A DNA stretch of 64,000 nt from an uncultured Gammaproteobacteria bacterium (GTDB taxonomy: Bacteria; Patescibacteriota; Patescibacteriia; UBA9934; GWF2-40-263). The number at the start of each line of letters is the position of its first letter. The first letter of the stretch is position 1. The DNA lies in NCBI GenBank assembly GCA_964499955.1, contig CAZCMI010000001.1, positions 39,485 to 103,484 on the forward strand. The letters run 5' to 3'. Of the stretch, positions 32,552-48,861 are shown piece after piece. A program made the position numbers and the translations under genes. The notes beneath the pieces were generated by a model. The model was not told the origin of the DNA. It saw only the letters and a program-made list of their open reading frames with translations, and ran no database searches.

Positions 32552-35500
32552 ATGCATGTTTCCACCCGTTCCCCACGGGGCCGCAAGGTTCCCGTACGTG
32601 CCGCGTTCCTGGGTTTGGTTCTTGCGTTCGGCGCGCTCGTCGCCCCGCTCGCTCCTGCCCAGGCAGCTATCACGACACAAGAGGCCGTTTCATTGATTTC
32701 CGTCGATACCGGCATCGTGGAGAACAGCACGCCGGTGGCGGTGTTGGCGTTGAATCTTGCCGCATCCGCTGGGGAAACGCTTCGGGAGTTGACGCTTCAC
32801 GTCAATCATCCGAGTTGGTACGACGGCACCGTGGACGGCGGCCTGTTCGAATCACTCAACACGAGCGCGACATCCGGTTTGCATGTGTACGCGGACAACC
32901 AGTCCGTCGGTGTGAACGGGCGCTTCGACGCCGCCGATACCCTCGTTGCGGTGGACGGCATCATAGAAGATGGCTGGGGCGGATTCGGGTACGGGTATGG
33001 ATATGGGTACAGCACGGTCACCATCTCCTTTACGGCCGGCGTGCAAATTCCGCAGCACGACGGGCCCACGGCGGACCACCAATTCCGCGGGGCGGACTTT
33101 TTCGTGGTGATTCGCACCAACGACTTGTTTGACGGAGGGGATGCCATTCCGTTTACCGTTGAAATCCCCGCGTCAAACGCCATTGTGTATACGGGCGACG
33201 GTATCGACGGTGGAGACGCGGTACCGGGAAATATCAACCCTGTTGAAACGGGTGCCTTGTGGGGCGTTGATATCAGCCCGGGCGACACGTTCCAAACGGT
33301 TGAAACGGTCGACCGCGACGACAACGGTTTGCTTGATGCTATCCGTGTGACCTGGGGTGCCGGATTTGAGGAAGAATCCTGGGGATATGGTTATGGGTTC
33401 GGGTTGAACGACAATTTCTCGAGCATGACCGGTTCGGTGTCGGTCGTGGATGAAAGCGGCGAGGAAGACTACGCATACAACGTTTCCAGTATCAGGACCT
33501 GCTTGCCGGACGAAGACAACGCGTGCAGCCAGGGAAGCTATTACGACAACGTGTTCTACCTGTTGCTTGATGAGCGGGAGATTGCCACGCCAGACGTGTG
33601 GAATGCGCCGGATTCAGACCATCTTTGGTGGGGCGACACGGGCGTCACGCCGGTCGTAACGATGACGAATAATTCGACCCTGCGTGATGCGTCCATTGGG
33701 TTCCGCCAACCCGGCCCGCCGTATCCCGGCAACCCGGACATTACCTATGTTGCCAACCCGAACGATGAGGAAGAGCATGATTGGCGGGATGTCACCACCT
33801 ACAATCTTCCGGGCGGCGCGCTCGTGAGTTTGGATGGATTGGACGGAGAAGGAGCGGAAACGGACGATGACGCCCCGCCGGTGATGGTGCGGGCGGAAAC
33901 GGAAGACAACAACGGGAACGGCCACGTCGACACGCTCTTGGTCTACTTCAGCGAACCCGTGTATGTCACGGACGGGGAGAACTCGCCGAGCGGGTTCCCG
34001 GCCTTCATCAACGTGCAATCCGTCCCCGGCGGAACGCCGTACGTGATCCCGTCCGGCAACTACACGGCAACGGGCGTAGGGAATAGTGGCGTGTGGGAGG
34101 CGTCGTTCGATCTCACGGAGTCGGATGTGTTCGACACATCCGTCGTGCTTTCGTTCGAATACGACGACAGCCGCGTCAGCACCCACATTCGGGACGCCGC
34201 GGATCTCGATGTGCTTGAGCACACCATCCAGACCGTGGACCGCGCCGCGCCCGTCTTGGTGCACGCCACCACGCGCGACGGCAACGCGAACGGCTACCTG
34301 GACGGCGTCTACGTGGAATTTTCGGAGGAAATCTTCGTGGGGACCGTCGAAGGTGAGGACCTCTACGTTTATCACACCTACGAGCAGTTCTGCGTGGATG
34401 GGTACGAAGTGACCGGCATTACGGCCGCCTTCGGTGAAGGCATCGGGTTCGGGTACGGTTCGAAGCGGTATTTGCTGGACCTGGCGCCGGGCAACACGTG
34501 GGACACGGGCGTGACGCCGGATATCGATGTGGGCTGCGAGGAAGAAGCGTATGGCGTGTTCGACCTGCAGCATGAGGCAGATGTAACTGCGCACCTCGAT
34601 GATGAAGATTATGACGAACTGGAAGAGATCTTCGGGTTCTGGCGGAACGTGAACGACATGCAGTTTTTCGACGAAACCCTGGACCGCGCCAAGCCCATTC
34701 TGATGGAGGCGTCCACGTACGACATCGATGAAAACGGCTTCATCGACCGCCTGTGGTTGCGCTTCTCGGAACCCATTGGCGACGGCGACACGTGCGAAGC
34801 GGTTCCGGAGAATTTCTCCGTCGTGGACGGTGAATACACTTACGCGTCGGACGACGGCGATTGCGGTTGGGTGGACGATGAAGCGTGGGGATACGGCTAC
34901 GGCGATTATCTCCTGGAATTGGCGGAGCGGGATACGCCGGACACGGATGCCACGCCGTCCGTGACCATCGTGCTCGACGGGGAAGAGCTGGGCGTGTTCG
35001 ACCTGGTGGGCAATGAAAACGACGGCCAGTCCTTCGGCGCCGCCGAGGACCGCGCCGCCCCGCGCGTCTATCGCATCGATTATTTGGACGAAGTGGGAAC
35101 CGCGAACGGCCGCATCGATGCCATCGACCTGCATTTCTCGGAAACCGTCGTCGGCGGCTCGTCCGTCCTGCGGCGCCATCACGTGCGGTTGGCAGACGTC
35201 GGTGATTTTACCGGCGCCGTGGCGCATGGCAGCGACGCGGAGGACTTCTCCAACCTGTTCTCCGTCGGTTCGTATACGTCGCTGCAGGTGGATTTCAAGA
35301 CGGAAGCCACCGTGGTGGATACGCACGATGACAGCGGGGACTTCGAGGTCGCGTTCCGCTTCAACGTCGATGCGTTGGTGGGATATGGGTACGGCTACGG
35401 CTGGAACCTGCAGGACGGCGAAGGCAACGGCACGGGCGAGCGCTGTGACAGCTGGCCGTACGACTGCGGCCCGCTGTTCACGGAAGAAACGGAAGGCCAG

Positions 35501-38500
35501 GTAGAGGAAAACCTGGGCCACGCGGACGTGCAGGACCACGCCGCGCCGGTCGTCTTCTCGTCGGAAACCTTGGACGATGACGGCGACGGCTTCGTGGACA
35601 CCATGGTCGTGGTTTGGTCCGAAGTGTTGGATGAAACCGAAACCAACCTCAAGTTGGCGGGATCGTTCGACCTGGAAGACGAACAGTACCCCGACTTCAC
35701 CCTGGTGAGCGTCGTGCGGGCAGATGACAATGCCTACGTCATTGAAGAAGGGGAACCGGACGTGACGGATCCCCGCACGGTCACGACCTTCACCATCGAA
35801 GCGTCCGAAATCGACGCATCGAACGAATACGGCGACACGGACGCCGAGATCGAAATTTCCTTGAAGAGCGACCAAAACGTCAACGACCCGGACGACAACA
35901 CGCACACGAGCGGGACGTTCCCGGCGTTTACGTCCGCGGACCGCGCCTTGCCCACGTTGTGCACGTCCGACCGGGAAGGGACGAAGTGCGATGAAAACCG
36001 CCAGTTCTTGGACAACGACGAAAACGGCAACGTGGACCAGGTGGCCCTGATATTCTCCGAGCCCATCCGGGCCCTCGGCGACAGCGGCGGCGTGGTTGCC
36101 GGTTCGTTCGCCGTCTCCATGGACGACGACGGCCCGCTTTACACGGCGGTCACGGGTGTGTCGCATGGAGGCGGCACGCGGGACGTGACGCTGACCTTGG
36201 AAGAATTCGGCGACTTCTTGACGAACCCGTTGGAAGGCGACACGGGGAAAGAGTACGACGTGTCCTTCGGCTACGGGTACGGCAGCCCCGTCACCCCGTT
36301 GACCCTCTTCGAAGACATGGCCGGCAACGAGCAGGACGAAGAAGGCCTCCTGTTCGACCTGCAGGACTACGCCGCGCCCGCCATGGGCTACGGCTTCACC
36401 CGCGACGCCGACTGGAACGGCAAGATCGACGGCGTATGCGTGCCGTTCTCCGAACTGCTGGATCCGGACACGGTGTATTTCGAAGAAGATCCGGAATACG
36501 GTTTCGACTTCGAGGTGGACGGGTATGCGGTTGCCAGCGTGTCGGCACCGAACGTGGAAGGTGCCTGTCAGAGCGCGGTGCATTATCTGATCGACCTGAC
36601 GGAAGGCAGCACGCCTGATACGGACGCCACGCCGGACGTGTCCATTCAGGAAGATTACGAGTTCTTGGATGACGCCGGAAACGTGTTTGACGCGGATTCG
36701 TTCACGGCCGGTCCGTTGGCCGCCGCGGACGGCGCGGCCCCGGCCATCGTCTCCTTCACCTACCTGGACACGGACGTTCCGCGCGACGGCCGCATCGACA
36801 CGATGCGCGTGACGTTCTCGGAACCGGCGGTCGCGGCGTCCGTGCTGCGCGCGGCGGACCTCTCCTTCGACGACGTGGGCGACTTCACCGGCGCCGCGTT
36901 CGGCGGAAGCACCGCGGACCTCGTCGCGGAAACGGTTTCCTCCGTGGACGTGCCGCTCGGCACCGAAGCCACGGTGGTCGACACGCATGAGGATTCCGGC
37001 GACATCGCCGTCGACACGCTGTCCGGCTCCTTCGTCCTGCAGGACGCGGCCGGCAACACCACGACCCAGACGGCGGACGTCTTCGGCAGCGAGGTCGTGT
37101 TCGGCACGGTGAGCCACGCCACGTTCTTGGACGGCGCGGCCCCGGTCATCAAGTCCTTCACCTACCTGGACGAGGATGCCGACGGCAAGATCGACGCGTT
37201 CACCGTGGTCTTCTCGGAAGAAGTGACGGACGAATCCGTCCTGCGCCGCAACGACCTGGACTTCGCCTACGGCTACGGGTACGGCGACTTCGCCGGTGCC
37301 GCGTTCGGCGCCGGAGACAACGTGATTACCACGGCGTCGGCGACCGTGAAGGTGACGCTCGGCACGGAAGCCACGGCGGTGGACACGCACGACGACAGCG
37401 GCGACCTGTCCATCGAAACCCAGGGCGACTTCTCCCTGAAGGACGCGGCCGGCAATGAAAACGACGGCCATTACGTCCAAAACCAGGCCGATTACCTGGA
37501 CGGCGCGGCCCCGGCCATCTTCTCCTTCACCTACCGCGACGTGAACGTGGACGGCCGCATCGACGCCATCCGCGTGACGTTCACGGAAGAGGTCGTCGCC
37601 GGCTCGTCGCTGGCCGCCGCGGACCTCTCGCTCACCAACGTGGGCGCCTTCACCGGCGCGTCCTTCGGCTACGGATACGGCTACGGCTCCACGGCGAACC
37701 TGCTGGCGGACCTCGTCGATCCCGCCGCCAACGTCTCCGTGCCGCTCGGCACGCACGCGACGGTGGTCGACACGCACGATGATTCCGGCGACCTTGCCAT
37801 TTCGACCGTTTCCAACGGCGCCTTCCTCCTGAAGGACGCGGACGGGAACGAGACGGACGACGGACTCGTGTTCCGCGCCCAGACGCAAGCCGTCTTCGTG
37901 GACGGCGCGGCCCCGGTCATCAAAGCCTTCACCTACCTGGATGAAGACGGCGACGGCCGCATCGACGCCTTCGGCGTGGACTTCTCCGAAACGGTCGTCC
38001 AGCACGCCCAGTCCGTCCTGTGCCCGAACGACCTGCAACTGACCAGCGTCGGCGCCTTCACCGGCGCGGACTTCGGGGATTGCGACGGCAACACGATCAC
38101 GGAAGACACGGCGAACGTGGTCGTGGATCTCGGCACGCCCGCCACGGTCATCACCACCTACACGGCGCCGGATTCCCTCGCCATCTCCACGAAGGAAGCG
38201 TTCTCCCTGCGCGACGACGCCGGAAACGTGAACAGCACGCTCGGCGCCCAGGCGCAGGCGACGTTCGCGGACGGCGCCCGCCCGATCTTCGTCTCCGCCA
38301 CCACCAAGGACCTGAACAAGGACGGCACGGTGGACGCCGTGCACCTGGTCTTCTCGGAGTCGGTGGACGTTACGAACGGCGGGGAAGCGACGAACGTCCC
38401 GACCATGACCCTGTCCGCTTCCACGGGTACGGCGGCGTTCAACAACGTGGAAGACGCGTCCTTTGAGGGCGTTGCGGAACTTACCCTGGGTGTGACCGTC

Positions 38501-39739
38501 AGTTCGACGGCCAACACGGCCTTGATTCTCAGCCCGGTCTACGTCCTGGCTGGCGACGGCAGCATCAAAGACGCCGCCGACAACGAAATGCTCGATGAGA
38601 AAACCGTCACGGGCATCGACGGCGCCCGCCCGGTGATCGTGTTCCGCGATCCTACCTCGAACACCACGGGTACGACCTTGGACAAGTCGCTGGTCATCAC
38701 GTTCTCGGAACCGATGAACAAGACGGACGTGCAGAACGACTTCTCGCTGAACCCCGGCGCCGGCACGCTCTCCTTCAACTGGTCGGAGGAAGACCGGACG
38801 GTGACCATTTCCCACCAGCTGTTGTTCCAGCGCGGCACCAACTACCACATCGCGTTCAACGATGAACCGGCCTCGGCCGCGAACGGTTCCAACGGCGTGG
38901 TGGACGACACGTTGGAAGACATTACCTGGTCGTTCGTCTCCCTGCCGCAAGACCACCATCAGAACGTCAGCAGTGGCGGTGGCGGCGGCGGAGGAGGAGG
39001 AGGTTTCGTCGCGGCCGCGTCCTGCACCCTTGTTTCCCCGACGGGCGGCATGGCGGTGATGCAGGGCCAGACCCTGTCTGTCGCTTGGCAGTCCAGCGGC
39101 AGTGGCATCTCGAACGTGCAGATCGCCTACTCCACGGACGGCGGCGTGAGCTGGCAGCCGGTCGCCAGCAACGCGCCGAACACGGGCTCCCACGCCTGGA
39201 CGGTAAACGCGCCGGTGTCCGCGAACGTCCTCGTGCGCGTGGACTGCCGCGACGCCAACGGCGGCAACCTGGCCACGGCCACGTCGTCCCCGTTCTCGGT
39301 GACGGAGGGTCAAGCGGGCCTGATTACGCCCAACTCGCCGTTCTACGCGACGCCGGCCCACCCCGTTGGGTCGCTCGTCAAGGCCGTGGGCATGCCGGCC
39401 GTCTACTACGTGGACGCCGACGCCACCCGCCGGCCGTTCTGGAACGAGCAGATCTTCCTCACGTGGTTCGAGAACTTCGACACCGTGATCGAACTGCCGC
39501 TGGAAGAGATTTCGAAGTACAAGATGGGCAAGCCGATGCTGCCGCAGCCCGGCACGCTGCTCATCAAGATCCAGACGGACCCGAAGACGTACTGGATCGA
39601 CCCGGCCACGGGCATGGCCCGCTGGCTGACGTCGGAGGACGCCGCGCTGCGCGTGGTGGGACCTGATTGGAACACGCGGGTCATCGACATCGACCCGACC
39701 ATGTGGGCCTCCATCGCCTTCGGCCCGGACGTTGAGTAA
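32552..39739 (+). CDS. giant secreted surface protein (2395 aa): tandem Ca-binding-like repeats, GY-repeat linkers, poly-Gly hinge, Ig-like domain, shared C-terminal module
   Basis: Signal peptide (...LVAPLAPAQAA). At least 14 tandem ~130-aa modules carry DxDxNGxIDxxxVxFSExV. There are nine (GY)n inserts and a G11 run before an Ig-like domain (LSVAWQSSGSGISNVQIAYSTDGGVSWQPV). The C-terminus reads PAVYYVDADATRRPFWNEQIFLTWFENF...LLIKIQTDPKTYWI. Confidence 0.7.
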   Translation: MHVSTRSPRGRKVPVRAAFLGLVLAFGALVAPLAPAQAAITTQEAVSLISVDTGIVENSTPVAVLALNLAASAGETLRELTLHVNHPSWYDGTVDGGLFESLNTSATSGLHVYADNQSVGVNGRFDAADTLVAVDGIIEDGWGGFGYGYGYGYSTVTISFTAGVQIPQHDGPTADHQFRGADFFVVIRTNDLFDGGDAIPFTVEIPASNAIVYTGDGIDGGDAVPGNINPVETGALWGVDISPGDTFQTVETVDRDDNGLLDAIRVTWGAGFEEESWGYGYGFGLNDNFSSMTGSVSVVDESGEEDYAYNVSSIRTCLPDEDNACSQGSYYDNVFYLLLDEREIATPDVWNAPDSDHLWWGDTGVTPVVTMTNNSTLRDASIGFRQPGPPYPGNPDITYVANPNDEEEHDWRDVTTYNLPGGALVSLDGLDGEGAETDDDAPPVMVRAETEDNNGNGHVDTLLVYFSEPVYVTDGENSPSGFPAFINVQSVPGGTPYVIPSGNYTATGVGNSGVWEASFDLTESDVFDTSVVLSFEYDDSRVSTHIRDAADLDVLEHTIQTVDRAAPVLVHATTRDGNANGYLDGVYVEFSEEIFVGTVEGEDLYVYHTYEQFCVDGYEVTGITAAFGEGIGFGYGSKRYLLDLAPGNTWDTGVTPDIDVGCEEEAYGVFDLQHEADVTAHLDDEDYDELEEIFGFWRNVNDMQFFDETLDRAKPILMEASTYDIDENGFIDRLWLRFSEPIGDGDTCEAVPENFSVVDGEYTYASDDGDCGWVDDEAWGYGYGDYLLELAERDTPDTDATPSVTIVLDGEELGVFDLVGNENDGQSFGAAEDRAAPRVYRIDYLDEVGTANGRIDAIDLHFSETVVGGSSVLRRHHVRLADVGDFTGAVAHGSDAEDFSNLFSVGSYTSLQVDFKTEATVVDTHDDSGDFEVAFRFNVDALVGYGYGYGWNLQDGEGNGTGERCDSWPYDCGPLFTEETEGQVEENLGHADVQDHAAPVVFSSETLDDDGDGFVDTMVVVWSEVLDETETNLKLAGSFDLEDEQYPDFTLVSVVRADDNAYVIEEGEPDVTDPRTVTTFTIEASEIDASNEYGDTDAEIEISLKSDQNVNDPDDNTHTSGTFPAFTSADRALPTLCTSDREGTKCDENRQFLDNDENGNVDQVALIFSEPIRALGDSGGVVAGSFAVSMDDDGPLYTAVTGVSHGGGTRDVTLTLEEFGDFLTNPLEGDTGKEYDVSFGYGYGSPVTPLTLFEDMAGNEQDEEGLLFDLQDYAAPAMGYGFTRDADWNGKIDGVCVPFSELLDPDTVYFEEDPEYGFDFEVDGYAVASVSAPNVEGACQSAVHYLIDLTEGSTPDTDATPDVSIQEDYEFLDDAGNVFDADSFTAGPLAAADGAAPAIVSFTYLDTDVPRDGRIDTMRVTFSEPAVAASVLRAADLSFDDVGDFTGAAFGGSTADLVAETVSSVDVPLGTEATVVDTHEDSGDIAVDTLSGSFVLQDAAGNTTTQTADVFGSEVVFGTVSHATFLDGAAPVIKSFTYLDEDADGKIDAFTVVFSEEVTDESVLRRNDLDFAYGYGYGDFAGAAFGAGDNVITTASATVKVTLGTEATAVDTHDDSGDLSIETQGDFSLKDAAGNENDGHYVQNQADYLDGAAPAIFSFTYRDVNVDGRIDAIRVTFTEEVVAGSSLAAADLSLTNVGAFTGASFGYGYGYGSTANLLADLVDPAANVSVPLGTHATVVDTHDDSGDLAISTVSNGAFLLKDADGNETDDGLVFRAQTQAVFVDGAAPVIKAFTYLDEDGDGRIDAFGVDFSETVVQHAQSVLCPNDLQLTSVGAFTGADFGDCDGNTITEDTANVVVDLGTPATVITTYTAPDSLAISTKEAFSLRDDAGNVNSTLGAQAQATFADGARPIFVSATTKDLNKDGTVDAVHLVFSESVDVTNGGEATNVPTMTLSASTGTAAFNNVEDASFEGVAELTLGVTVSSTANTALILSPVYVLAGDGSIKDAADNEMLDEKTVTGIDGARPVIVFRDPTSNTTGTTLDKSLVITFSEPMNKTDVQNDFSLNPGAGTLSFNWSEEDRTVTISHQLLFQRGTNYHIAFNDEPASAANGSNGVVDDTLEDITWSFVSLPQDHHQNVSSGGGGGGGGGGFVAAASCTLVSPTGGMAVMQGQTLSVAWQSSGSGISNVQIAYSTDGGVSWQPVASNAPNTGSHAWTVNAPVSANVLVRVDCRDANGGNLATATSSPFSVTEGQAGLITPNSPFYATPAHPVGSLVKAVGMPAVYYVDADATRRPFWNEQIFLTWFENFDTVIELPLEEISKYKMGKPMLPQPGTLLIKIQTDPKTYWIDPATGMARWLTSEDAALRVVGPDWNTRVIDIDPTMWASIAFGPDVE
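33300..38700 (+). repeat. intragenic tandem repeat array (period ~390-450 nt) with near-identical DNA copies in the 3' part
   Basis: Example: ggacggcgcggccccggtcatcaa(g/a)(t/g)ccttcacctacctgga at ~37128 and ~37898. The modules begin DGAAPxIxSFTYLDxDxDGRID. Confidence 0.6.
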
Positions 39740-40368: not shown

Positions 40369-40441
40369 GGCGCAGGGCCGGTTCGTTGCCCGCCGGTCCT
40401 GTTTCGTGATAGAAAAGCGTATCGAATGGCCTGCGTTTCCT

Positions 40442-41404: not shown

Positions 41405-43518
41405 CGCCCGACGTCAGCATCATCGTACCGACGAAGAACTCCGCCCGCACGTTGGAGACCTGCCTGCGTTCCTGTCGGGCGCAGGAGGGTGTTTCCGTGG
41501 AGGTCGTCGTGGCGGACAATTTTTCCACGGACGGCACGGCGGAGATCGCCCGGACCCACGCGGACCGGGTGTTTGCGTGCGGTCCCGAACGTTCGGCGCA
41601 GCGGAACGAGGGCGCGCGCCAGGCGCGTGGAAACGTCCTCCTGTTCATCGACAGCGACCTGCGTTTGGAACCGGACGCCGCCCGGGCGTGCCTGAAGGCG
41701 CTGCAGGAGCCGGGCGTTCGCGGCGCGGTCCTGCCGGACGAATCCTTCGGCGAGGGATTTTGGTCGGCGTGCAAGACGGCGGAACGCAAATGCTACGAAG
41801 GGGAAGGGTGGATCGAGACGCCGCGCGCGTTTCCGCGGGACGTGTTTTGGGCCGCGGGCGGGTATGACGAAACGATGGTCAGCGGCGAGGACTGGGACCT
41901 GGCGCAGCGCGTGGGCGGGCCGTTCGTTTGCGCGCGGACGCGCATGTATCACGACGAAGGCCGCCTGCCGTTTTGGGGCGCCGCGCGGAAGAAATGGTAT
42001 TACGGGCGCCGGTTCGTTCCGTACGCGGACAAGGCGGAACACGCGGACCTGCGCCGCGCGCAGCTGAGCGCGCGCAAGCGGTTCGCTCTTTTGTGGCGCA
42101 AGACGGGCGAACGCGGGGAGCCGTTGGCGGTGCGGGTTGGCGTCTTGTGGGTGAAGGCCTGCGAAGGCGTCGCGTTCTTCGGCGGGATGGCTTGGACGCG
42201 CGTATTCGGCGCGCCGCGCGGCATGATGCCGTCCGGCGGGCAGAGCGCCCCCCCCCGCGACATTCCCGCTCGCGGCGCTCTTGACGCCGCGTTCGTGTTA
42301 ACCCCCTGTTTTCCACCGGCCGTGGGCGGGACGGAAGCTGCCTCCTCGCGGCTCGCGCGGTTCTTGGCGACGCGCGTGGGCCGCGTGGAAGTGATTTGTC
42401 CGGCGGATGCCGATCCCGGGGCCGCCCGTGCGTTCGACGCGTCTTTTGAAACGCCCGTGCGCCGGTTCGGTTCCCGGTTGTCCCGTGCGGCGGAGGCAAC
42501 TATCGTCCGTTCGAACCGGGGGACGGACCGCATGTACGGCGGGTCCGCGCCGCCTTCGTTGCGCGCGGGCGTGGAGGCCGCGTTCTTCGGGTGCGCCATG
42601 ACGTGGGGTTTCGCGTGGACCTTGTTCCGCCGAGCGCGGGCCGCGGTGGGCGCGAACGTCGCCGTCTCCTGCCATTCGTTGGCGGCCGTTTTTGCCGCGG
42701 GTCTCGTCCGGCGAGCGGTTCCGTCCAAGAAGATGCGGATCGCGTTCGTCAATGGTTTCGTCATCCAGCGGACGGGACAGACGGTGAAGAACTGGCTGAT
42801 TTCCCTGTGTGTGCGGAGGGCGGACGTCTGCGTGTGCGTCTCGGAGGCCGTGGCCCGGCCCTTGCGGGAGGATTTCGGCGCGCGGAAGACGGTCGTATAC
42901 CACTCCTGGCTGGCGTCGTGGGAGGGCGTGGATCGGGCGTGTGCGGCATCTGACGGCGGGCGCGCGTACGAGGCCGGCGTCCTGCACGTGTTGTTCGTCG
43001 GTCGGATCAGCCGGGAGAAGGGAATCGGGGAATTACTCGCGTGGATCCGGCATCTGCGTGAAACGGGTGACCATCGGTATGCCGTAACGATTGTCGGTAC
43101 GGGGGACCCCGCCTTGGAGCGGGCCGTGCGGGAAGAAGCGGGACGCACGCCGTTCCTGCGCATGTTGGGCCGCGTGGACAAACCGGCCCTGTGGGACGTG
43201 TACGCGTCCCACGACGTTTTCCTCATGCCGTCCGTCTGGCAGGAGGGCGCCGGGAATGTCATTATTGAGGCGGCCGCGTGCGGAGTGCCCGTCTTGGGCG
43301 CGCCCGTCGGCGGGATTCCGGAATTGTCCGGCCTCGTGCCGTTTTCGGCTTTATTGGAAGGGAAGGCGCCGGCGGATTTCACACGGGCGTTGGATGCCAT
43401 GGCCGCGCGCATGCGCGCGGCCGGGCGTCCGGCCGTCGTCCAGGCCTGCCGCGCCGCCGCCCGAACGCATTTTTCGGCTGCCAACGCCGAGGTTATTTGG
43501 AACGCATTCGGTTTATGA
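41401..43518 (+). CDS. bifunctional GT2-GT4 fusion glycosyltransferase (~705 aa)
   Basis: The N-terminal half is GT2 (VSIIVPTKNSARTLETCL...ADNFSTDG...DSDL...GEDWDL). The C-terminal half is GT4 (...VLHVLFVGRISREKGIGELL...EAAACGVPVLGAPVGGIPE). It is a single uninterrupted frame with ATGA overlaps at both ends. Confidence 0.65.
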   Translation: MTPDVSIIVPTKNSARTLETCLRSCRAQEGVSVEVVVADNFSTDGTAEIARTHADRVFACGPERSAQRNEGARQARGNVLLFIDSDLRLEPDAARACLKALQEPGVRGAVLPDESFGEGFWSACKTAERKCYEGEGWIETPRAFPRDVFWAAGGYDETMVSGEDWDLAQRVGGPFVCARTRMYHDEGRLPFWGAARKKWYYGRRFVPYADKAEHADLRRAQLSARKRFALLWRKTGERGEPLAVRVGVLWVKACEGVAFFGGMAWTRVFGAPRGMMPSGGQSAPPRDIPARGALDAAFVLTPCFPPAVGGTEAASSRLARFLATRVGRVEVICPADADPGAARAFDASFETPVRRFGSRLSRAAEATIVRSNRGTDRMYGGSAPPSLRAGVEAAFFGCAMTWGFAWTLFRRARAAVGANVAVSCHSLAAVFAAGLVRRAVPSKKMRIAFVNGFVIQRTGQTVKNWLISLCVRRADVCVCVSEAVARPLREDFGARKTVVYHSWLASWEGVDRACAASDGGRAYEAGVLHVLFVGRISREKGIGELLAWIRHLRETGDHRYAVTIVGTGDPALERAVREEAGRTPFLRMLGRVDKPALWDVYASHDVFLMPSVWQEGAGNVIIEAAACGVPVLGAPVGGIPELSGLVPFSALLEGKAPADFTRALDAMAARMRAAGRPAVVQACRAAARTHFSAANAEVIWNAFGL

Positions 43519-44525
43519 TTGTCGCCAGCGTCGCCGTTCCCGCGCGGAACGCGGAGAAAACCATGGGAGCGTGCCTGCGCGCGCTTGCGCGGCAGACCTT
43601 CCCGCCGGACCAGTTTGAGGTCGTCGTGTGCGACGACGGTTCGACGGACGCAACTCGCGCCATCGTCGAGCGCTTCGCCCAAACCGCCCCCTTCCGCCTG
43701 CGCTTATTGCGGCGCCGTCCCGATGACGTGCACGGCCCCGGCTTTGCGCGCGGGGACGCCTGGCGTGCGTGCGAGGGAGACGTCCTGCTGGCGACGGACG
43801 CGGATTGCGTGCCGGATCCCGCCTGGATCGCCGAAGCCGTCGCGGCCGTGCGGGAACGCGGGGAAGCCGTCGTCTTCGGCGCGACGGTCGCGGAAGACCT
43901 GTTGTTATTTCCACATCGGGCCGCTGCGATCGGCTGGGGCGTCACCGGCAATTGCGCCGCGCGGCGGGACGTTTTCCAGACCCATGCGTTCGACCCCTCG
44001 TTCGTCGGGCTGTACGGCGAAGACGCGGATTATTTCCTGCGGATCGAACGGGCCGGCGTCCGCATCGCCCGCGTTCCCGGCATGCGGGTTCTGCATCCGG
44101 TAAAGGTGTATGGCGCGAAGACGCTCGCGTACCGCGCTTTCAGCAGGAAGAACGAAGCGTTATTGCATAAAAAGCACGGCGGGCGCGCGGCGCCGTTCTT
44201 CCATCCGTTTTTTCGCGCCTTCGGTCGAACGGGCGTTTCCCCGATGTTCCTCGCCGTCGTCGGGTTTTTTCTCGCGGCGGTCTTGCTCATCGCCACCGTG
44301 CCTCTCCGCCTCGTTCTTGTCCTGTTTGCCGCAAGCGCCGTGATGGGCGGCATCTGGTTCCTGTGTTGGGGCTACAAGACGTGTATCATATTCCTGCCGC
44401 CGGACGCGCCGCCCGTGTCGGTGCGGGAACGGGTACGGACGCTCGCTTCGCTTGTCTTGTACATGCCGTGCCTCCTCGCCGCCCGCGTATACGGGTCGGT
44501 CCGATATCATACGTGGTTCGTTTGA
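43515..44525 (+). CDS. GT2 glycosyltransferase with C-terminal TM segments
   Basis: VAVPARNAEKT...VCDDGSTD...ATDADCVPDP. The C-terminus is hydrophobic. Confidence 0.7.
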   Translation: MIVASVAVPARNAEKTMGACLRALARQTFPPDQFEVVVCDDGSTDATRAIVERFAQTAPFRLRLLRRRPDDVHGPGFARGDAWRACEGDVLLATDADCVPDPAWIAEAVAAVRERGEAVVFGATVAEDLLLFPHRAAAIGWGVTGNCAARRDVFQTHAFDPSFVGLYGEDADYFLRIERAGVRIARVPGMRVLHPVKVYGAKTLAYRAFSRKNEALLHKKHGGRAAPFFHPFFRAFGRTGVSPMFLAVVGFFLAAVLLIATVPLRLVLVLFAASAVMGGIWFLCWGYKTCIIFLPPDAPPVSVRERVRTLASLVLYMPCLLAARVYGSVRYHTWFV

Positions 44526-44538: not shown

Positions 44539-46206
44539 ATGACCTTCGCCTCCCTCCGAACCCACGCCGCCGCCTGGTTGAAGCGTTGGGTGCATCTGTG
44601 GCCGTTTCCCCTGGCCGTGCTGGCCGTCACCGGTCCGTGGTTGGCGCCCGGGTACCTGTTTTTCACGGACTTCGCCGTCGGCCCGTATTCCCGCTTTTCC
44701 TGGCCGACGATTGGGGCGCCGGGAAAGGCGCTCATGCACGTCGTCGGCGCGGTGACCTCGAACGACGTCGGGCAGACGGTCTTTTTGGTGGCGCTGTGCG
44801 CCGCCTTGCTCGCCGGCGGGTACCGCCTGGCCCGCGCGTTTACGGACGACAAAACCGTCGCCGTGGTGGCGGGGTTATTCTTCCTGTTCAATCCGTTCGT
44901 GTACGACCGCTTCGGCTACGGGCAGGTGTGGGTGATCGCCAGCGTGGCCTGCATGGCCCTGGCCTTCGCCTCCGCCTGCGATTGGACGCGCGACCCGGCG
45001 GGGAAGCGCTGGGCCATCTTCCGCGCCTTGGCGTGGGCGGGGTTGTCCGTGCACTTCACGCCGCACGCGGCGTATTTGTTGGCGCCGCTCGCCCTGGCCT
45101 GGCTCGTTTGGTCCGTGCGGGAAACGGTGGCGGCGGGGACGGCGAAGGACATCTGGCGCGCGGCCATCGTGCCCGTGCTGCTCGGTCTCGCGGCCGCGGC
45201 CGTGATGAACCTCAACTGGGTCTGGCCCAGCGGCGGTGGCGGCGGGGGCGGCCTGTGGATTTCCACGGAGGAAATTACGTGGCACCACTTCCAGGTGTTC
45301 CGCACGGCGGGGGAGACGGCCTTCGACGCTTCGGCCCGCGTGGCGGCCTTGGCGGGCTTTTGGGGCGCCGCCCAGCACCGCTACCAGGATTTCACCGCCG
45401 AACCCGGCTGGATGAGCGCGTTCCTGCTGTCCGTGCCGTTGTTGGCCGCGGGCTGGTGGCAGGGCATGCGCGACCCGCGCCGGCGGTGGCTGGCCTGGGG
45501 GACGCTCGCCGCGGCGTTTGTTTCCTTCCTGCTGGCCTTGGGGTTGGCGTCCGCGCCCACGGAGGCGCTCACCCGCTTCCTCTTTGCCCACGCGCCCGGC
45601 TACTCCGGCATGCGCGAAACGCAAAAATGGGCGGCGGTGATGCTGGTGTGCTACGTCGTGTGGCTCACGTGGGGCCTGGCCTGGCTCCGCACGCGCACAT
45701 GGGTGCGCGGCTGGCGCGCGGCGCTCACCGCGTTCGTGGCGGCCGTCATGATCGCCCAGGCGCCGCTGTTGGCCTGGGGGCTGCACGGCGCGTTCACCCC
45801 GCGCCCCTACCCGGACGATTGGCAGGAACTGGCCGTTTGGTTGGAAGAACGCGGCTGCGACGGCACCATCGTCTTCCTGCCGTGGCACATGTACATGGCC
45901 TTCCGGTGGATCGGCCCCGCGCCGGTGATCCGGCCGACCGCCGCTTTCCCGTGCCGCATGCTCGGCACGTCGGACATGGAATGGGGCGGGGTGGAGGTGA
46001 TTGAGCGGGGAGCGCAGGGAGAGGTGGCCGCCTGGGTGAAAGCCCAGGGCAAAACCGACGTCCTGGCCGACCCGGACATCGACATCCGCCTGATCGTCCT
46101 GGCCAAGGAAGCGGACTGGCAGCGGTATGCGTGGCTTGCGAACGTTCCCGAGCTGCGCGGCGTATTCGACACGCCCACGCTGCGCGTGTACGAGGTCGTG
46201 CGGTAA
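44539..46206 (+). CDS. polytopic membrane protein, putative GT-C-fold glycosyltransferase (unassigned family)
   Basis: ~11 TM segments, an internal G9 run and a ~150-aa C-terminal extracytoplasmic domain. Confidence 0.4.
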   Translation: MTFASLRTHAAAWLKRWVHLWPFPLAVLAVTGPWLAPGYLFFTDFAVGPYSRFSWPTIGAPGKALMHVVGAVTSNDVGQTVFLVALCAALLAGGYRLARAFTDDKTVAVVAGLFFLFNPFVYDRFGYGQVWVIASVACMALAFASACDWTRDPAGKRWAIFRALAWAGLSVHFTPHAAYLLAPLALAWLVWSVRETVAAGTAKDIWRAAIVPVLLGLAAAAVMNLNWVWPSGGGGGGGLWISTEEITWHHFQVFRTAGETAFDASARVAALAGFWGAAQHRYQDFTAEPGWMSAFLLSVPLLAAGWWQGMRDPRRRWLAWGTLAAAFVSFLLALGLASAPTEALTRFLFAHAPGYSGMRETQKWAAVMLVCYVVWLTWGLAWLRTRTWVRGWRAALTAFVAAVMIAQAPLLAWGLHGAFTPRPYPDDWQELAVWLEERGCDGTIVFLPWHMYMAFRWIGPAPVIRPTAAFPCRMLGTSDMEWGGVEVIERGAQGEVAAWVKAQGKTDVLADPDIDIRLIVLAKEADWQRYAWLANVPELRGVFDTPTLRVYEVVR

Positions 46207-46263: not shown

Positions 46264-46278
46264 CCTCCCGATTAATCC

Positions 46279-48861
46279 ATGCTTGTTTTCTTTTCCAACG
46301 GTATGTCCCTTGAGAGCGTCCAGACGTGTGCGCGGCAGACGGCCGCGCGCTGGTTGCCCGCGGCGTTGATCGCCGTGGCCGCCTGTTTCCTGTTCGCGCC
46401 GCGCGTGCACGCGCATTTTCTCCGTGTAGACGGCCCGGTCGGTTGGGGCTACGGCTACGGGTACGGCTTTACGGCCGGCTACGGCTGGGACGAAGGAACG
46501 CAGGCGGGCGTGCGCCTGTCCGGTGAACCGGGTCCGGTGGGGGTAGATACGTCCATCTCATCCACCACGTGGCACTTCACCTATAACGAAATCACGGGTG
46601 ATTACGCCTACGAAGTGGTCGGCAACCAGGAATTCGACGACGGAAATGTGCCTCTTGAGGAATTGGACAGCGTCGACGACGGCATGTCCGACGGCGTGTA
46701 CCTGGGCTTCGATTTCCCGTTCTACGGGGAAACGTACGGCTACGGCTACGCGTCCACGAACGGGTTCCTCACGTTCAACCCGGACTCCTACGACGGCTGC
46801 TGCAACGGGCTCGCAATGCCGGATCCGGATCTGGCGGAGGAAGAGGATCTTCATTCCCTTATCGCCGGGTTTTGGACGGACTTGTCCAATAGTTTCGAGG
46901 GGGCGCGCATGTTCTACCGGTTGGTCGCCGGGGAACCCGGCGAGTCCCTCGCTATTTTCCACTGGGAAGATGTCCAGGTCCGGTATAGCGGCGGATCAAC
47001 GGCCACCGTCTCGTTCAGGATCGTCTTGGAGGAATCGGGCGATTTCTACGTGGAGTTGATTGCCTTGAATAACCAGCCGGAGGATAACTACCATCTCACC
47101 ATCGGCAGCTTGAACCAGGACGCCACCCGCGCCACCACGGTGTACAACGCGTTCCACGTGGGTGGTCGGCAGAGCCTCGGTTTGTACGGATACGGCTATG
47201 GCTACGGCCTGCCGTTGTGGAACAATGCCAACGTGCTCGCGTATGACGCGCAGACCAACACGTACGACATCCCCGCGTCCGCGTTCCCATTTGTCGTGCA
47301 ATCCGGCCTCATCGACATCCCCGGCTTCTCCGGCGATCTGGACGACATCGATTACGATGAAAACGAAGACCAATGGATGTCGAGTTTCGTGATGAATCTC
47401 CGCGTTCGCGTCGGCGAGCACACCGTCTATTTCCCGCAGGGCACGATCTTGGACACGGGAGATTTGTCCAACTGGTCGGCGTCGGCCAGCGTGGACACGA
47501 CGGGTGTTGAAGGCACGGTTCGCGCCGCCCTGTCGATCAAGGTGAACTCCTGGGATCTGACCGACATCGACGAAGAAGACCCGGTCTACACCTTCAAGGT
47601 GAACAGCGGGTTGAACGGGCAGAGCTTGGCCGTTTGGTCCTTTGAGGAAGGCGGCTGGTGGTTGACGGAGGACAGCTGCACGGTTTCGGGCGGCTTCTGC
47701 GTCGTCGACTCGTTCGACAACGTCGGTGCCATCGCGCTCTCCGGCGGCACCATTTCCTCCGGCGGCGGGGGTGGCGGCGGCGGTTCTTCCTTCGGCGCCC
47801 CGCAGACGACGTCCCTCACCATCGCCCAACCCACCTCCGGTACCCAGCTCGCCCACGGCAGCTCCACCTCCATCGTGTGGTACGCCCAGGGAGGCATCGC
47901 GCAGGTCCGCGTGTCCCTCTCGTATGACGGCGGTACCACGTGGAGCGTCGTGCTCGGCACCACGCCCAACAGCTTCCTGCCGTGGACGGTTCCCAATGCG
48001 GCCACGCAACAGGCCCGCATCCGCTTGGAAGGATTGTCCTCGAGCGGATCCGTGCTTGCCACAGCCGTTTCCCAGCCCTTCACCATCACCGGCACGACGG
48101 AAGCGCCCGTCACGGTTGTCCCGCCCACGGAAGGAACCATCGGCTTCAACGAAGACCGCCTGGGCGTCTCCTTCCCGCAGCGCGTCACCCGGGAAGAAGC
48201 CAACGCCGCGCTTCCCGCCGGCATCGTCGTGGACGACCTCATCAAAGTTCCCGATGACGGCAATCCCGTCACCCAGTCCGACACCACCGTGTACTATGTG
48301 GGCATGGACGCCCGCCGCCATCCGTTCCCGAGCGCCGCGTCCTTCCTGTCCTGGTACCCGGACTTTGGCGACGTGAAGGACGTCACTTTGGAACAGCTTT
48401 CCGCCATTCCCTTGGGTTCCCCCATCATGCCGCGGCCCGGCACGCACTGGGTGAAGATCCAGAGCGACCCCAAGACCTACTTCGTTTCTCCCGGCTACGT
48501 GCTGCACCACGTTGCCGACGAAGCGACCGCCGCCCTGCTCGGCGGACCCGACTGGAACCGGAACGTCGTGGACATCGAACCCACGTTCTTCCCCCGGTAT
48601 CTCCAGGGCCAGTCCATCACCCTCCAGAACCTCCAGATTTCCTGGCCGTCCGGCGCCCTGCTGCAAACCGTTGAGAACCCGGGCCAAACGTACCTGATGA
48701 CCTCCGAAGGCCTCCGGTTGTTCGCCGACGATTCCTTCGCGCAAAACCGCTACCAAGAACGCTTCATTCTCAAGACGTCCGCTTCCTCCCCCTGGAACGC
48801 TCTCCAGCGCGGGAACCCCATCGCCTCGCAGGAAGACCGGCTGTGGAGTTTGATGCATTAG
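46279..48861 (+). CDS. secreted surface protein (860 aa): GY-repeat N-terminal region, poly-Gly hinge, Ig-like domain, shared C-terminal module
   Basis: GWGYGYGYGFTAGYG, ...SSGGGGGGGSSFG, SIVWYAQGGIAQVRVSLSYDGGTTWSVV and TVYYVGMDARRHPFPSAASFLSWYPDF...HWVKIQSDPKTYFV. An alternative start is at 46303. Confidence 0.6.
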   Translation: MLVFFSNGMSLESVQTCARQTAARWLPAALIAVAACFLFAPRVHAHFLRVDGPVGWGYGYGYGFTAGYGWDEGTQAGVRLSGEPGPVGVDTSISSTTWHFTYNEITGDYAYEVVGNQEFDDGNVPLEELDSVDDGMSDGVYLGFDFPFYGETYGYGYASTNGFLTFNPDSYDGCCNGLAMPDPDLAEEEDLHSLIAGFWTDLSNSFEGARMFYRLVAGEPGESLAIFHWEDVQVRYSGGSTATVSFRIVLEESGDFYVELIALNNQPEDNYHLTIGSLNQDATRATTVYNAFHVGGRQSLGLYGYGYGYGLPLWNNANVLAYDAQTNTYDIPASAFPFVVQSGLIDIPGFSGDLDDIDYDENEDQWMSSFVMNLRVRVGEHTVYFPQGTILDTGDLSNWSASASVDTTGVEGTVRAALSIKVNSWDLTDIDEEDPVYTFKVNSGLNGQSLAVWSFEEGGWWLTEDSCTVSGGFCVVDSFDNVGAIALSGGTISSGGGGGGGGSSFGAPQTTSLTIAQPTSGTQLAHGSSTSIVWYAQGGIAQVRVSLSYDGGTTWSVVLGTTPNSFLPWTVPNAATQQARIRLEGLSSSGSVLATAVSQPFTITGTTEAPVTVVPPTEGTIGFNEDRLGVSFPQRVTREEANAALPAGIVVDDLIKVPDDGNPVTQSDTTVYYVGMDARRHPFPSAASFLSWYPDFGDVKDVTLEQLSAIPLGSPIMPRPGTHWVKIQSDPKTYFVSPGYVLHHVADEATAALLGGPDWNRNVVDIEPTFFPRYLQGQSITLQNLQISWPSGALLQTVENPGQTYLMTSEGLRLFADDSFAQNRYQERFILKTSASSPWNALQRGNPIASQEDRLWSLMH

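Follow-up and report, generated by a model that had tools for sequence, protein, structure and literature searches.

Two large proteins of the locus analyzed in our study are punctuated by short runs of alternating glycine and tyrosine, which raises the question whether these GY tracts are unstable DNA repeats or elements kept for what they do in the protein. In the following, the window is the whole stretch of DNA that was analyzed (64 kb). Three of its genes are central and are referred to as A, B and C:

32552..39739, plus strand: protein A, an ORF of 2395 aa with a signal peptide, an N-terminal region, 13 tandem Ig-like modules, a G10 hinge and a C-terminal cassette.
44539..46206, plus strand: membrane protein C, 555 aa, of an MmpA/AftD-like, GT-C-type family, ending 72 nt upstream of B.
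46279..48861, plus strand: protein B, 860 aa; an alternative gene call starts at Met9 (nt 46303).

A preliminary description of this DNA had counted at least nine tracts in protein A and at least three in protein B. Both counts were reproduced. Protein A has nine sites, namely seven tracts with two or more GY units ((GY)n≥2) and two sites with a single GYG, while three tracts (aa 56-63, 153-157 and 303-310) and an adjacent GYGW were found in protein B; all GY peptides quoted earlier are present in the two ORFs. Six-frame translation of the whole window yielded ten (GY)n≥2 tracts, seven in A and three in B, all of them in frame. Shuffling the residues 20,000 times gave on average 0.05 tracts for A and 0.035 for B, and the observed number was never reached. 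As the origin, a mobile DNA insertion and a hexamer independent of frame were both rejected, since no other frame or gene of the window contains the repeat. An alternative genetic code or an assembly artefact was rejected as well because the ORFs are uninterrupted and independent assemblers recovered them in identical form.

It had also been proposed that the tracts are slippage-prone simple-sequence repeats, or adhesive, phase-separating low-complexity segments that would vary in length between strains and act by disorder. A hexamer periodicity is detectable at five tracts, the Gly runs of these proteins are GGN repeats, and the apparent number of repeats in W(GY)n ranges from 2 to 7 among homologues. 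However, the homologues differ by substitutions (GY to GF, GN or GH) inside a segment of fixed length and not by indels, and the 18-residue leader segment described below is equally long in 67 of 72 family members. The DNA of the tracts is short and imperfect, with 2.7-4 hexamer copies and 73-100% matches, some of them are not detected as tandem repeats, and the codons are mixed (GGC/GGG/GGA and TAC/TAT). Moreover, slippage by a hexamer would stay in frame and could not act as an on/off switch. The tracts comprise 5-10 residues, the longest having 10, which is far shorter than phase-separating low-complexity domains with their tens of residues, and those of B are modeled as β-strands. Copies of protein B in two other assemblies (ENA and Logan) were 100% identical to the window at the DNA level and copies of protein A from other sources were identical too, although these copies probably derive from the same sample and are weak evidence on length constancy. 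A metagenome scan with codon-degenerate anchors around two tracts of A and variable gaps gave 0 matches, and among 600 stretches matched in an alignment-based search for related loci none was upheld by tblastn. Taken together, we regard slippage or low complexity as a highly improbable explanation.

The tracts of protein A have to be read against its modular structure. Each module opens with 'D-x-A-A-P ... D-x-D-x-D-G-x-I-D ... F-S-E', and an HMM built from the modules recovered 13 copies with E values of 1e-23 to 1e-41. The repeats were mapped by windowed BLAST together with this HMM, as plain blastp self-comparison returned the identity match only. Pfam Big_5 matched the last module (aa 2024-2128) with 53.4 bits at a gathering cutoff of 23.6, and since the other modules are homologous to it, protein A is classified as a Big_5 or SbsC-like protein with tandem bacterial Ig modules. 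For an AlphaFold2 (AF2) model of two modules (pLDDT 69) the best PDB matches in Foldseek were SbsC (4uic, E 6.5e-4) and 2ra1, with a TM score of only ~0.3. The modules are 117-148 aa long compared to ~105 aa for the homologous modules of distant relatives (P0002-P0006), which are devoid of GY tracts. Three further entries (P0001, P0007 and P0008) turned out to be protein A under different start calls, and a search for encoding contigs found none for P0001. The following tracts were located in protein A:

32981..33010, plus strand: GFGYGYGYGY (aa 144-153; (GY)n part 145-152), in the N-terminal region.
33380..33403, plus strand: WGYGYGFG (aa 277-284; (GY)n part 277-282).
34445..34459, plus strand: short tract GFGYG (aa 632-636) with a single GYG, just before the core strand 'YLLDL'.
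34886..34903, plus strand: WGYGYG (aa 779-784), directly ahead of the core strand 'YLLEL'.
35381..35404, plus strand: GYGYGYGW (aa 944-951; (GY)n part 944-950), inserted before the last strand of module 830-991.
36266..36283, plus strand: FGYGYG (aa 1239-1244), an insertion that follows strand 'YDVSF' in module 1127-1268.
37268..37285, plus strand: YGYGYG (aa 1573-1578), where sister modules have a 4-residue gap.
37664..37687, plus strand: FGYGYGYG (aa 1705-1712), exceeding sister module 1390-1523 ('GAAFG------GSTADL') by a 6-residue insertion.

The second site with a single GYG is MGYGF at aa ~1279. Alignment of the modules, a check that had been suggested before, mapped the tracts of A as insertions of 4-6 residues to at least five different module positions; those at aa 632-636 and 779-784 share one module column. 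In the AF2 model the tract at aa 1573-1578 (query residues 50-55) forms a short strand with low pLDDT and the tract at aa 1705-1712 (query residues 182-189) has a pLDDT below 50. Confidence at the modeled tracts of A ranges from below 50 to ~50, so that their exposure in loops is putative. The module alignment supports the view that the tracts of A are lineage-specific insertions, probably acquired at different places of otherwise homologous modules. To this extent, the earlier proposal of secondarily acquired inserts at varying positions was borne out. It does not extend to protein B, where none of the three tracts coincides with an indel relative to homologues: tracts 1 and 3 are ancient and conserved in the family, and tract 2 is a core strand altered by substitution.

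Protein B consists of, in this order, a signal peptide, the GY leader, a NIDO-like domain, a second conserved GY strand with its β-domain, a G8 hinge and a C-terminal cassette. Its tracts are:

46444..46497, plus strand: tract 1 (aa 56-63) within the 18-residue leader segment WGYGYGYGFTAGYGWDEG (aa 56-73), the family signature.
46735..46749, plus strand: tract 2, YGYGY (aa 153-157), core strand of the NIDO-like domain.
47185..47208, plus strand: tract 3, YGYGYGYG (aa 303-310), which corresponds by homology to the family's second conserved tract ('Y-G-[YF]-G-Y-G' then 'YD..T..Y.I').

By alignment with homologues we showed that tracts 1 and 3 form the core of a conserved N-terminal module, here called the GY leader. 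It is composed of a Sec signal peptide ending in small-x-Ala, the motif [Q/E/H]-F-x-R-x-x-G and the 18-residue segment W-G-Y-G-Y-G-Y-G-Y-G-x-G-x-G-[W/F]-D-x-G, followed downstream by a second Y-G-Y-G-Y-G strand that opens a β-domain, a Gly/Ser-rich hinge and variable C-terminal domains. Protein B shows all four hallmarks, namely the signal peptide with an AQFxRxxG-type start, the 18-mer, the second strand and an adjacent GT-C gene. Its start '...APRVHA|HFLRVDG' aligns with 'NIYA|QFARQTG' of at least 27 members, and its second strand (Ar-G-Ar-G-Y-G) opens a β-domain with 'YD..T..Y.I' and two conserved Cys. The region aa 303-474 aligns with residues ~75-250 of short family members, the NIDO-like domain being inserted between the two tracts. 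Protein A lacks both the leader-type signal peptide and the [Q/E/H]-F-x-R-x-x-G motif and thus carries no GY leader.

An exhaustive HMM search of representatives identified the leader in at least 91 protein clusters, always at the N-terminus and largely in Patescibacteria-type genomes. A scan of GTDB genomes revealed at least 119 loci coding for GWGYGYGYG, and among the matches listed 28 leader-protein ORFs in 26 loci share the N-terminal module. A word-index search with the leader alignment gave three short fragments only; the index is seemingly insensitive to a motif of such low complexity. The leader module was matched by no Pfam or NCBIfam model, and we found no literature on it. Within the 18-mer, Gly is invariant at positions 4, 6, 8, 14 and 18, while positions 3, 5, 7 and 9 carry Tyr in 55-62 of 67 members and Phe in only 1-6. 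The module is common to proteins with many different C-terminal domains; some members end in PG_binding_1, so that the leader need not be the anchor.

All three tracts of B were modeled as β-strands by AF2 (model of aa 38-490, pLDDT 75). Tract 1 lies in strand E18-26, where blocks of ten residues have a mean pLDDT of 83 and then 64, and tract 3 in strand E265-273. Tract 2 (strand E114-122, pLDDT ~92) aligns without indels to 'TYDTIYASN' and 'KTSYRLSS' of homologues, in which GY is not conserved. It is predicted to be a well-packed core strand, and at least one tract therefore appears to be ordinary. The reservation made beforehand, that the tracts might simply be ordinary strands of the domain fold, accordingly applies in part. 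The domain around tract 2 is best called NIDO-like because all matches were sub-threshold: NIDO (PF06119) scored 14.2 bits (E 0.045) at aa ~110-300, under its cutoff of 25, and P0015 and P0017 also remained below threshold in the same region.

These strands might serve structure alone. The conserved tracts could pair antiparallel within one protein, or tracts of A and B between molecules, as a Gly-aromatic zipper for folding or self-assembly of a lattice with no direct link to glycans. In line with this, the tracts of B are all modeled as strands, of which those of tracts 1 and 3 both span nine residues, and Gly is invariant at alternate positions. The spacing between the two tracts tolerates whole domains, such as the NIDO-like domain of B or ~350 aa in L052 and L054. 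Moreover, GYGYGYG peptides reportedly self-assemble into amyloid-like fibrils (PMC8163036, PMC10510724), and the precedent of Tyr packing over Gly, described as "aromatic rescue" in β-sheets (bioRxiv 10.1101/2020.10.22.346965), applies here too. A purely structural zipper leaves unexplained, however, the ~10-60-fold preference for Tyr over Phe at four positions as well as the strong adjacency to GT-C genes reported below, and the scattered loop positions in A would be odd for a defined lattice contact. We consider it a possible but rather doubtful account.

A more elaborate structural role would be donor-strand polymerization, in which the N-terminal GY strand enters the β-domain of a neighboring subunit and builds surface fibers as in chaperone-usher or type V pili. 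The alternating pattern of a strand directly after the signal peptide, the low-confidence linker that precedes the β-domain (B aa 67-91, pLDDT below 50) and the many C-terminal passengers of the module are compatible with such fibers. But AF2 folds the GY strand confidently inside the monomer, no usher, chaperone or sortase-like gene is conserved near leader genes, and protein A has no leader, which makes this mechanism improbable.

The gene neighborhood points in another direction. A, B and C lie inside a large glycosyltransferase/rhamnose cluster of the window (GT2, GT4, a GT2-GT4 fusion, epimerase/dehydratases and an RmlD-like gene), which includes:

40355-41404, plus strand: GT2 gene, between A and C.
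~41400-43518, plus strand: GT2+GT4 fusion, between A and C.
43278-44525, plus strand: GT2 gene, between A and C.
62037: window ORF, 4,6-dehydratase-like gene.
62857: window ORF, RmlD-like gene.

Protein C matched the NCBIfam model of MmpA (NF053599) over nearly its full length with 114.9 bits (E 3.8e-33), under the cutoff of 210, and is therefore a homologue but no equivalog. Recognizable catalytic motifs were described as absent from MmpA itself (PMC8698533). There was no Pfam match for C and no PDB match, either with C alone or with a 15-sequence profile; its homologue in L044 showed a weak match to GT-C_AftD (E 0.023). GT-C proteins are marked by an acidic residue in the first extracytoplasmic loop behind TM1; in 15 C orthologues the motif 'GYLFFTD', which follows the first transmembrane helix, is conserved without exception. 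Orthologues of C (E 1e-100 to 1e-71) precede the leader gene in the same orientation in 16 of 27 family loci from the matches listed, and a PMT_2 gene is adjacent in 6 more, so that 22 of 27 have such a neighbor. Of 92 other listed loci, only 2 have a GT-C-type neighbor (Fisher p = 4e-17), and GY-rich proteins are encoded in these two as well. In 10 loci a Wzx-like flippase gene is situated between the GT-C-type and the leader gene. Since small Patescibacteria genomes cluster their envelope genes, this adjacency may overstate a direct link.

Besides, a subtilisin-like Peptidase_S8 gene follows B:

48891..50492, plus strand: Peptidase_S8 gene, 29 nt downstream of B.

We rejected it as a conserved partner, as it does not recur beside other leader genes. 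No Pfam match to an O-oligosaccharyltransferase of the Wzy_C/PglL type was obtained for the window ORFs scanned or the conserved neighbors of leader genes.

The neighborhood also bears on oxidative cross-linking, which had been put forward earlier with a co-encoded peroxidase or tyrosinase as its expected companion. Dityrosine (or DOPA) links would make the surface layer harder, as is the case for proteins of the fluke eggshell or the Toxoplasma oocyst wall, and clustered tyrosines in extracellular proteins as well as the GYGYGYG-like sequences of eukaryotic Tyr-rich wall proteins fit this idea. Among the window ORFs scanned and the conserved neighbors of leader genes, however, no peroxidase, tyrosinase, laccase or oxidase was found, and the strict conservation of Gly together with the fixed length points to a defined fold. 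Oxidative cross-linking is thus a most improbable role of the tracts.

We therefore lean, tentatively and with slightly less than even confidence, towards the GY tracts being short Gly-aromatic β-strand motifs that are kept by selection at the protein level and tied to glycosylation or anchoring at the envelope, and not unstable DNA repeats. Strands with a Tyr face and a Gly back would couple secreted proteins to the envelope glycan, and paired strands might be stabilized by tyrosines packing over the glycines of the neighboring strand. As the function of the GY strands we infer glycosylation or glycan binding. Either their tyrosines would be acceptors for extracytoplasmic O-glycosylation by the neighboring GT-C enzyme, or the strands would dock onto the glycan product of this enzyme. 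The nine tracts of the S-layer-like protein A may be extra portable copies of the same element placed into loops of the Ig modules; insertions at no fewer than five module positions are in keeping with portable sites at the surface. Glycans attached to tyrosine are documented for S-layers, often with L-rhamnose in the adaptor saccharide (PMC2943079). Gly is conserved more strictly than Tyr, with which a purely structural role fits equally well. It also speaks against glycosylation of the tyrosines that, to our knowledge, the characterized GT-C enzymes that modify proteins, such as PMTs, target Ser/Thr and not Tyr.

In its boldest form, the leader and the copies in A would be the acceptor signal of a protein glycosylation system so far undescribed in Patescibacteria-type bacteria. 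The tyrosines of W-(G-Y)n would receive, at the Sec exit, sugar that a GT-C enzyme (C family or PMT_2) takes from a lipid-linked donor after flipping. This would make the enzyme the first GT-C tyrosine glycosyltransferase and the motif a portable "GY sequon". We regard this version as unlikely.

The runs of glycine appear to have a different role. They had been reported as G9-G11; their actual lengths are G10 in A, G8 in B and G7 in the membrane protein:

38975..39004, plus strand: G10 hinge of A, encoded by GGC/GGT/GGA codons; it separates the last Ig module from the C-terminal cassette.
39005..39736, plus strand: C-terminal cassette of A, in which a Kre9_KNH-like Ig domain precedes a 'YYV..RRPF..DPKTY' domain; B ends in a homologous region.
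45232..45252, plus strand: G7 run in a loop of protein C, not conserved in C orthologues.
47761..47784, plus strand: G8 hinge of B, which immediately follows the conserved β-domain and leads to the C-terminal cassette.

The C-terminal cassettes of A and B share 33% identity (BLASTP, E 7e-41), and Kre9_KNH gave a weak match in P0011. A run of at least five Gly occurs in 25 of 88 family representatives and its position shifts among homologues. At the G7 site, 'PSGGGGGGGLW' of C corresponds to 'ALATNSSQLGDF' in the L039 orthologue, a pairing read by eye. The description of the runs as hinges agrees with these data, as they directly precede the cassette common to A and B; they may act as flexible linkers ahead of it.

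Patescibacteria depend on surface contact with their hosts. The envelope of these bacteria (CPR) is almost unexplored. A conserved motif for which no family model exists and which is coupled to GT-C genes offers a testable handle on how their surface proteins are decorated or attached. If the tyrosines are glycosylated, protein glycosylation in bacteria would gain a new pair of enzyme and acceptor, and glycoengineering a short tag that is portable, whereas a motif of purely structural role would be a natural Tyr-over-Gly strand zipper of unusual length. Family models for annotation could be built from the motif and its pairing with the C family.

Among known systems, the closest are the S-layers with Tyr O-glycosylation encoded in slg clusters of Paenibacillus alvei (SpaA/WsfB) and Thermoanaerobacter spp. 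There, too, a large surface protein with Ig-like modules, in our case putatively similar to SbsC, lies amid GT2/GT4 and rhamnose genes, and tyrosine is a documented O-glycan acceptor of S-layer proteins (PMC2943079). In contrast to the WsfB type of P. alvei, the partner found here is not an oligosaccharyltransferase of the Wzy_C/PglL/WsfB type but a GT-C-like protein (MmpA/AftD-like or PMT_2). We know of no GY sequon described for the known systems with Tyr O-glycosylation of the S-layer. The O-mannosyltransferases of the PMT/GT39 type resemble those leader loci in which a polytopic PMT_2 gene stands beside a secreted protein with its element right after the signal peptide, where co-translocational modification would occur. 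However, PMTs modify Ser/Thr in disordered regions, and most leader loci instead carry the MmpA/AftD-like family, whose members are only putative GT-C enzymes.

With surface modules such as SLH, GW, choline-binding and YG repeats, and with specialized signal peptides such as YSIRK and KxYKxGKxW, the leader shares its conservation, an abundance of aromatic residues and Gly, many passengers and a link to envelope-glycan genes. A comparable link, to pyruvylated wall polymer and csaB, exists for SLH domains. The leader has no sequence similarity to any of these modules, however, and consists of a single 18-residue Gly-aromatic segment plus a second strand instead of a repeat of 20-55 residues. At the level of strands, the nearest parallels are the Tyr-Gly aromatic rescue or mortise-tenon pairs of β-sheets and β-barrels, in which Tyr packs over Gly of the neighboring strand; such packing is a plausible reason for the strict Gly/Tyr alternation in two tracts that could pair. 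The cases known to us are isolated pairs, and we are not aware of a described ladder of four to seven consecutive ones. Finally, GAGAGY-type repeats of silk fibroin and the designed amyloid peptide GYGYGYG likewise alternate Gly with a side chain in a two-faced strand. Unlike their long arrays or free peptides, the GY tracts analyzed here are predicted to be single short strands of fixed length within folded extracellular domains, flanked by conserved residues.

A six-frame scan of the 64 kb revealed ten GY tracts, that is (GY)n with n of at least two, all of them in frame in one of two secreted proteins, seven in protein A and three in protein B. The window has a GC content of about 65%, and a tmRNA (8679-9117) and a tRNA-Asp attest to its bacterial origin. 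The two proteins and the glycine runs are located as follows.

32552-39739, plus strand: protein A, 2395 aa, secreted
38975-39004: run of ten glycines (G10) in protein A
45232-45252: run of seven glycines (G7) in membrane protein C (555 aa)
46279-48861, plus strand: protein B, 860 aa, secreted
47761-47784: run of eight glycines (G8) in protein B

When residues were shuffled, the mean number of tracts was 0.05 for A and 0.035 for B, and the observed number was reached in 0 of 20,000 shuffles. The tract codons are mixed (e.g. GGG TAC GGG TAT GGA TAT GGG TAC), and Tandem Repeats Finder detected weak hexamer repeats at only five tracts (2.7-4 copies with 73-100% matches). We could show that the GY tracts are a protein feature under selection. 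The nine sites claimed for A in the preliminary description are reached when single GYG sites are counted too, and the glycine runs, which it had given as G9-G11, are those listed here. Its reading of these runs as hinges was confirmed. A and B have a C-terminal cassette in common, composed of a Kre9_KNH-like Ig domain and a 'YYV..RRPF..DPKTY' domain (33% identity, E 7e-41), which in both proteins is immediately preceded by the glycine run; in P0011, a database homologue of B, the run is found at a different place than in B. Runs of at least five glycines occur in 25 of 88 family representatives, frequently just C-terminal to the conserved N-terminal β-domain, and according to our own reading of the sequences the G7 run of C stands where its orthologues have an unrelated loop sequence. 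The poly-Gly runs are flexible linkers.

P0011 is homologous to B over the full length (35% identity), and tract 1 with its surroundings ('GPVGWGYGYGYGF.YGYGWD.GTQAG'), directly after the signal peptide, is nearly identical in both. Short members of the family (~480 aa) align to B residues ~302-474; therefore, tract 3 of B is the second conserved tract of the family. The NIDO-like domain of B has been inserted between tract 1 and tract 3, the conserved pair. For tract 2 ('ETYGYGYAST') an origin by insertion was rejected, because it aligns gap-free with 'NTYDTIYASN' and 'SSKTSYRLSS' of homologues; it is a substituted core strand. B residues 38-490 were modelled with AlphaFold2 from a 27-row alignment (mean pLDDT 75), with the linker B 67-91 disordered and the tracts placed as follows.

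Tract 1 (aa 56-63): strand E18-26 of the model, pLDDT block means 83 then 64
Tract 2 (aa 153-157): strand E114-122 of the model, pLDDT ~92
Tract 3 (aa 303-310): strand E265-273 of the model, pLDDT block means 59 then 93

The tracts had been taken for loop insertions rather than ordinary β-strands, which for B is contradicted by these three modelled strands. Since the strands are of equal length and Tyr tends to pack over Gly of an adjacent β-strand (bioRxiv 10.1101/2020.10.22.346965), we infer that tract 1 may pair with tract 3. Polymerisation in which a GY strand acts as donor strand is improbable. We show that tracts 1 and 3 of B characterise a conserved N-terminal module for which there is no annotation. 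Besides, a gene for a subtilisin-like Peptidase_S8 is located 29 nt downstream of B (48891-50492), and P0014 and P0016, distant database matches to the NIDO-like region, themselves bear Peptidase_S8 domains, so a functional link between NIDO-like domains and S8 peptidases is possible.

A scan of GTDB with one genome per species for DNA coding for GWGYGYGYG yielded at least 119 loci from many phyla, among which 26 loci with 28 ORFs form one family of proteins with this module, here called the GY leader. The 21 titled family loci are labelled as Patescibacteria lineages (12; Falkowbacteria, Saccharibacteria, Paceibacterota, "Patescibacteria group"), "uncultured Gammaproteobacteria" (5, third-party MAG labels), Sumerlaeota (1) or unclassified (3). 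The family proteins have, in this order, a conserved signal peptide ending in '...FGPNIYA', 'QFARQTG', the 18-residue stretch W-G-Y-G-Y-G-Y-G-Y-G-x-G-x-G-[W/F]-D-x-G, 'xxAGYRT' and, some ten residues further on, the second tract 'Y-G-Y-G-Y-G-Y'. A profile search run exhaustively against 1.84 billion cluster representatives found the leader in 91 clusters at E ≤ 1e-3, N-terminal in every cluster, in proteins of 76-3387 aa whose downstream domains vary by member (fn3, CarboxypepD_reg, PG_binding_1, YDG, Ig-like). No Pfam or NCBIfam model matched the leader, and full-text literature searches returned nothing on it in bacteria. In P0019 (78 aa) and P0020 (71 aa) signal peptide and leader are directly followed by a hydrophobic or unrelated tail; these may be gene calls shortened by truncation or frameshift, or else minimal forms of the leader tethered to the membrane. 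The module was classed as a putative cell-surface protein targeting or glycosylation signal.

Of 72 members, 67 share the same length of the 18-mer. Five of its positions are always Gly, and four positions carry Tyr in 82-93% and Phe in 1-6 of 67. Since the length is fixed and the residues vary, apparent differences in "repeat number" are substitutions (GY to GF, GN or GH), which argues against the length change by slippage suspected earlier; slippage or phase separation, taken together, can hardly account for the tracts. The idea of unstable low-complexity inserts was given up in favour of a strand motif of defined Gly-aromatic pattern.

Insertions of GY tracts are found repeatedly among secreted or periplasmic proteins across many phyla. 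In two other unrelated families of small proteins GWGYGYGYG forms a variable loop between conserved segments: one from Flavobacteriaceae with '...LLVNIFTK....V..' ahead of the tract (L014, L019, L028, L032, L059, L064, L073), the other, of ~145 aa, from Pseudomonas and others with '...SGAYxYxFK...GGGWGYGYGYGFSFTEGVT' (L017, L029, L067, L070, L079, L082, L096). Hyphomicrobium and relatives (L025, L033, L047, L063, L105) encode small secreted proteins of ~110 aa consisting almost entirely of G/W/Y/R/H ('YYYHRWHRGWGPRWRGPGWGYGYGYGYRGCYG...'). An acidic leader-like N-terminus ('LELTEEALADIYGG...', 'ELTDNDLQQVNGA...') is combined with a Gly/Tyr/Trp-rich C-terminus (GWGYGYGYGYGGG...) in several small ORFs of 65-146 aa at L005:3930-3955 and L068 (Dictyobacter aurantiacus NZ_BIFQ01000001.1); these resemble precursors for a modified-peptide natural product.

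Protein A consists of a signal peptide, a 435-aa N-terminal region and 13 modules in tandem, each opening with 'D-x-A-A-P ... D-x-D-x-D-G-x-I-D ... F-S-E', the last being a Pfam Big_5 domain; the structure ranked closest to a two-module AlphaFold2 model, at a TM of about 0.3, is that of the S-layer protein SbsC. The tracts occupy at least five different columns of the module alignment, each with 4-6 residues extra compared to sister modules, e.g. 'GASFGYGYGYGSTANL' against 'GAAFG------GSTADL'. Among 5.8 billion proteins only distant relatives of A were found (25-28% identity), which have the same modules in a shorter form (~105 aa) with no GY tract. Therefore, the proposal of secondary insertions at varying module positions is right for A, whereas it fails for B, where tract 2 aligns gap-free. 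The alignments show the A tracts to be lineage-specific insertions. Two of them were modelled with AlphaFold2 and lay in the least confident stretches (pLDDT <50 to ~50), drawn as short strands or bridges.

Orthologues of C, the "membrane enzyme" of the gene at 44539, (30-33% identity, phmmer E 1e-100 to 1e-71) are encoded upstream of the leader gene on the same strand in 16 of 27 family loci, the contig of P0011 among them. Often the two genes are separated by that of a Wzx-like flippase (in 10 loci) and that of a membrane protein of ~230 aa (in 18 loci). Six further family loci have a PMT_2 (GT-C) glycosyltransferase instead. Thus, 22 of 27 family loci have a GT-C-type neighbour compared to 2 of 92 other listed scan loci (Fisher p = 4e-17), and both exceptions (L022, L044) likewise encode GY-rich secreted proteins. 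C itself has no Pfam match and no PDB sequence match, and it scores 115 bits against NCBIfam MmpA, below the cutoff of 210. For MmpA, an alignment with the membrane portion of AftD, a GT-C enzyme, has been reported (PMC8698533), and the C-like protein of L044 matches GT-C_AftD weakly. These results show a tight linkage of the leader family to GT-C-type membrane proteins; the analysis as a whole yields the Gly-aromatic strand motif together with a family of N-terminal modules that had lacked annotation and has a conserved GT-C partner. An order of four genes is conserved in Patescibacteria loci (L039:1332-6549; also L023, L034, L050, L015, L056 and others): the C-family membrane protein (~560 aa) comes first, then a Wzx-like flippase of ~430 aa (Polysacc_synt), a polytopic membrane protein of ~230 aa that lacks annotation, and the secreted GY-leader protein. 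On the contig of P0011 (L122) a C homologue and a 187-aa homologue of the small membrane protein precede P0011.

From ~22 kb onward much of the coding sequence of the window has glycan functions, with four GT4, several GT2, a GT2-GT4 fusion, epimerase/dehydratases, a 4,6-dehydratase-like and an RmlD-like gene. The latter two, at the window end (62037-63897), suggest a dTDP-rhamnose pathway. Among the window ORFs scanned there was neither a peroxidase, tyrosinase or laccase nor a transferase of the Wzy_C type. Dityrosine cross-linking at the GY tracts, for which a co-encoded peroxidase or tyrosinase had been proposed as a check, is thus most improbable. Further genes of the window are the following.

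26070-26630: ECF-type sigma-70 gene, together with the next gene directly upstream of the 1294-aa ORF
26615-27778: DUF5667 protein, possibly an anti-sigma factor
27723-31607: 1294-aa ORF, no family match, no GY tract
31715-32416: TPR protein, between the 1294-aa ORF and protein A
55073-57205, minus strand: 710-aa ORF within the glycan cluster, coding-type GC3, no Pfam match
57283-59589, plus strand: 768-aa ORF within the glycan cluster, coding-type GC3, no Pfam match

The genes at 26070-31607 may be a regulatory unit of the surface-protein cluster.

We tentatively propose, at slightly less than even chances, that the Tyr/Gly strands couple these proteins to envelope glycan. The tyrosines would be O-glycosylation acceptors, or the strands would form a glycan-docking surface, and the inserts of A would be additional portable copies of the GY element. 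Tyr is strongly preferred over Phe, suggesting that its hydroxyl may matter; Gly, however, is conserved even more than Tyr, which counts against coupling to glycan, as does the Ser/Thr specificity of, to our knowledge, those protein-modifying GT-C enzymes that have been characterised. GY strands as a purely structural zipper would explain the sequence pattern equally well, and we consider this possible, if rather doubtful. That a GT-C enzyme glycosylates tyrosines at a portable GY sequon is unlikely. As to the glycan coupling of the strands, Tyr-linked glycans are established for S-layers, where the adaptor saccharides often contain L-rhamnose (PMC2943079).
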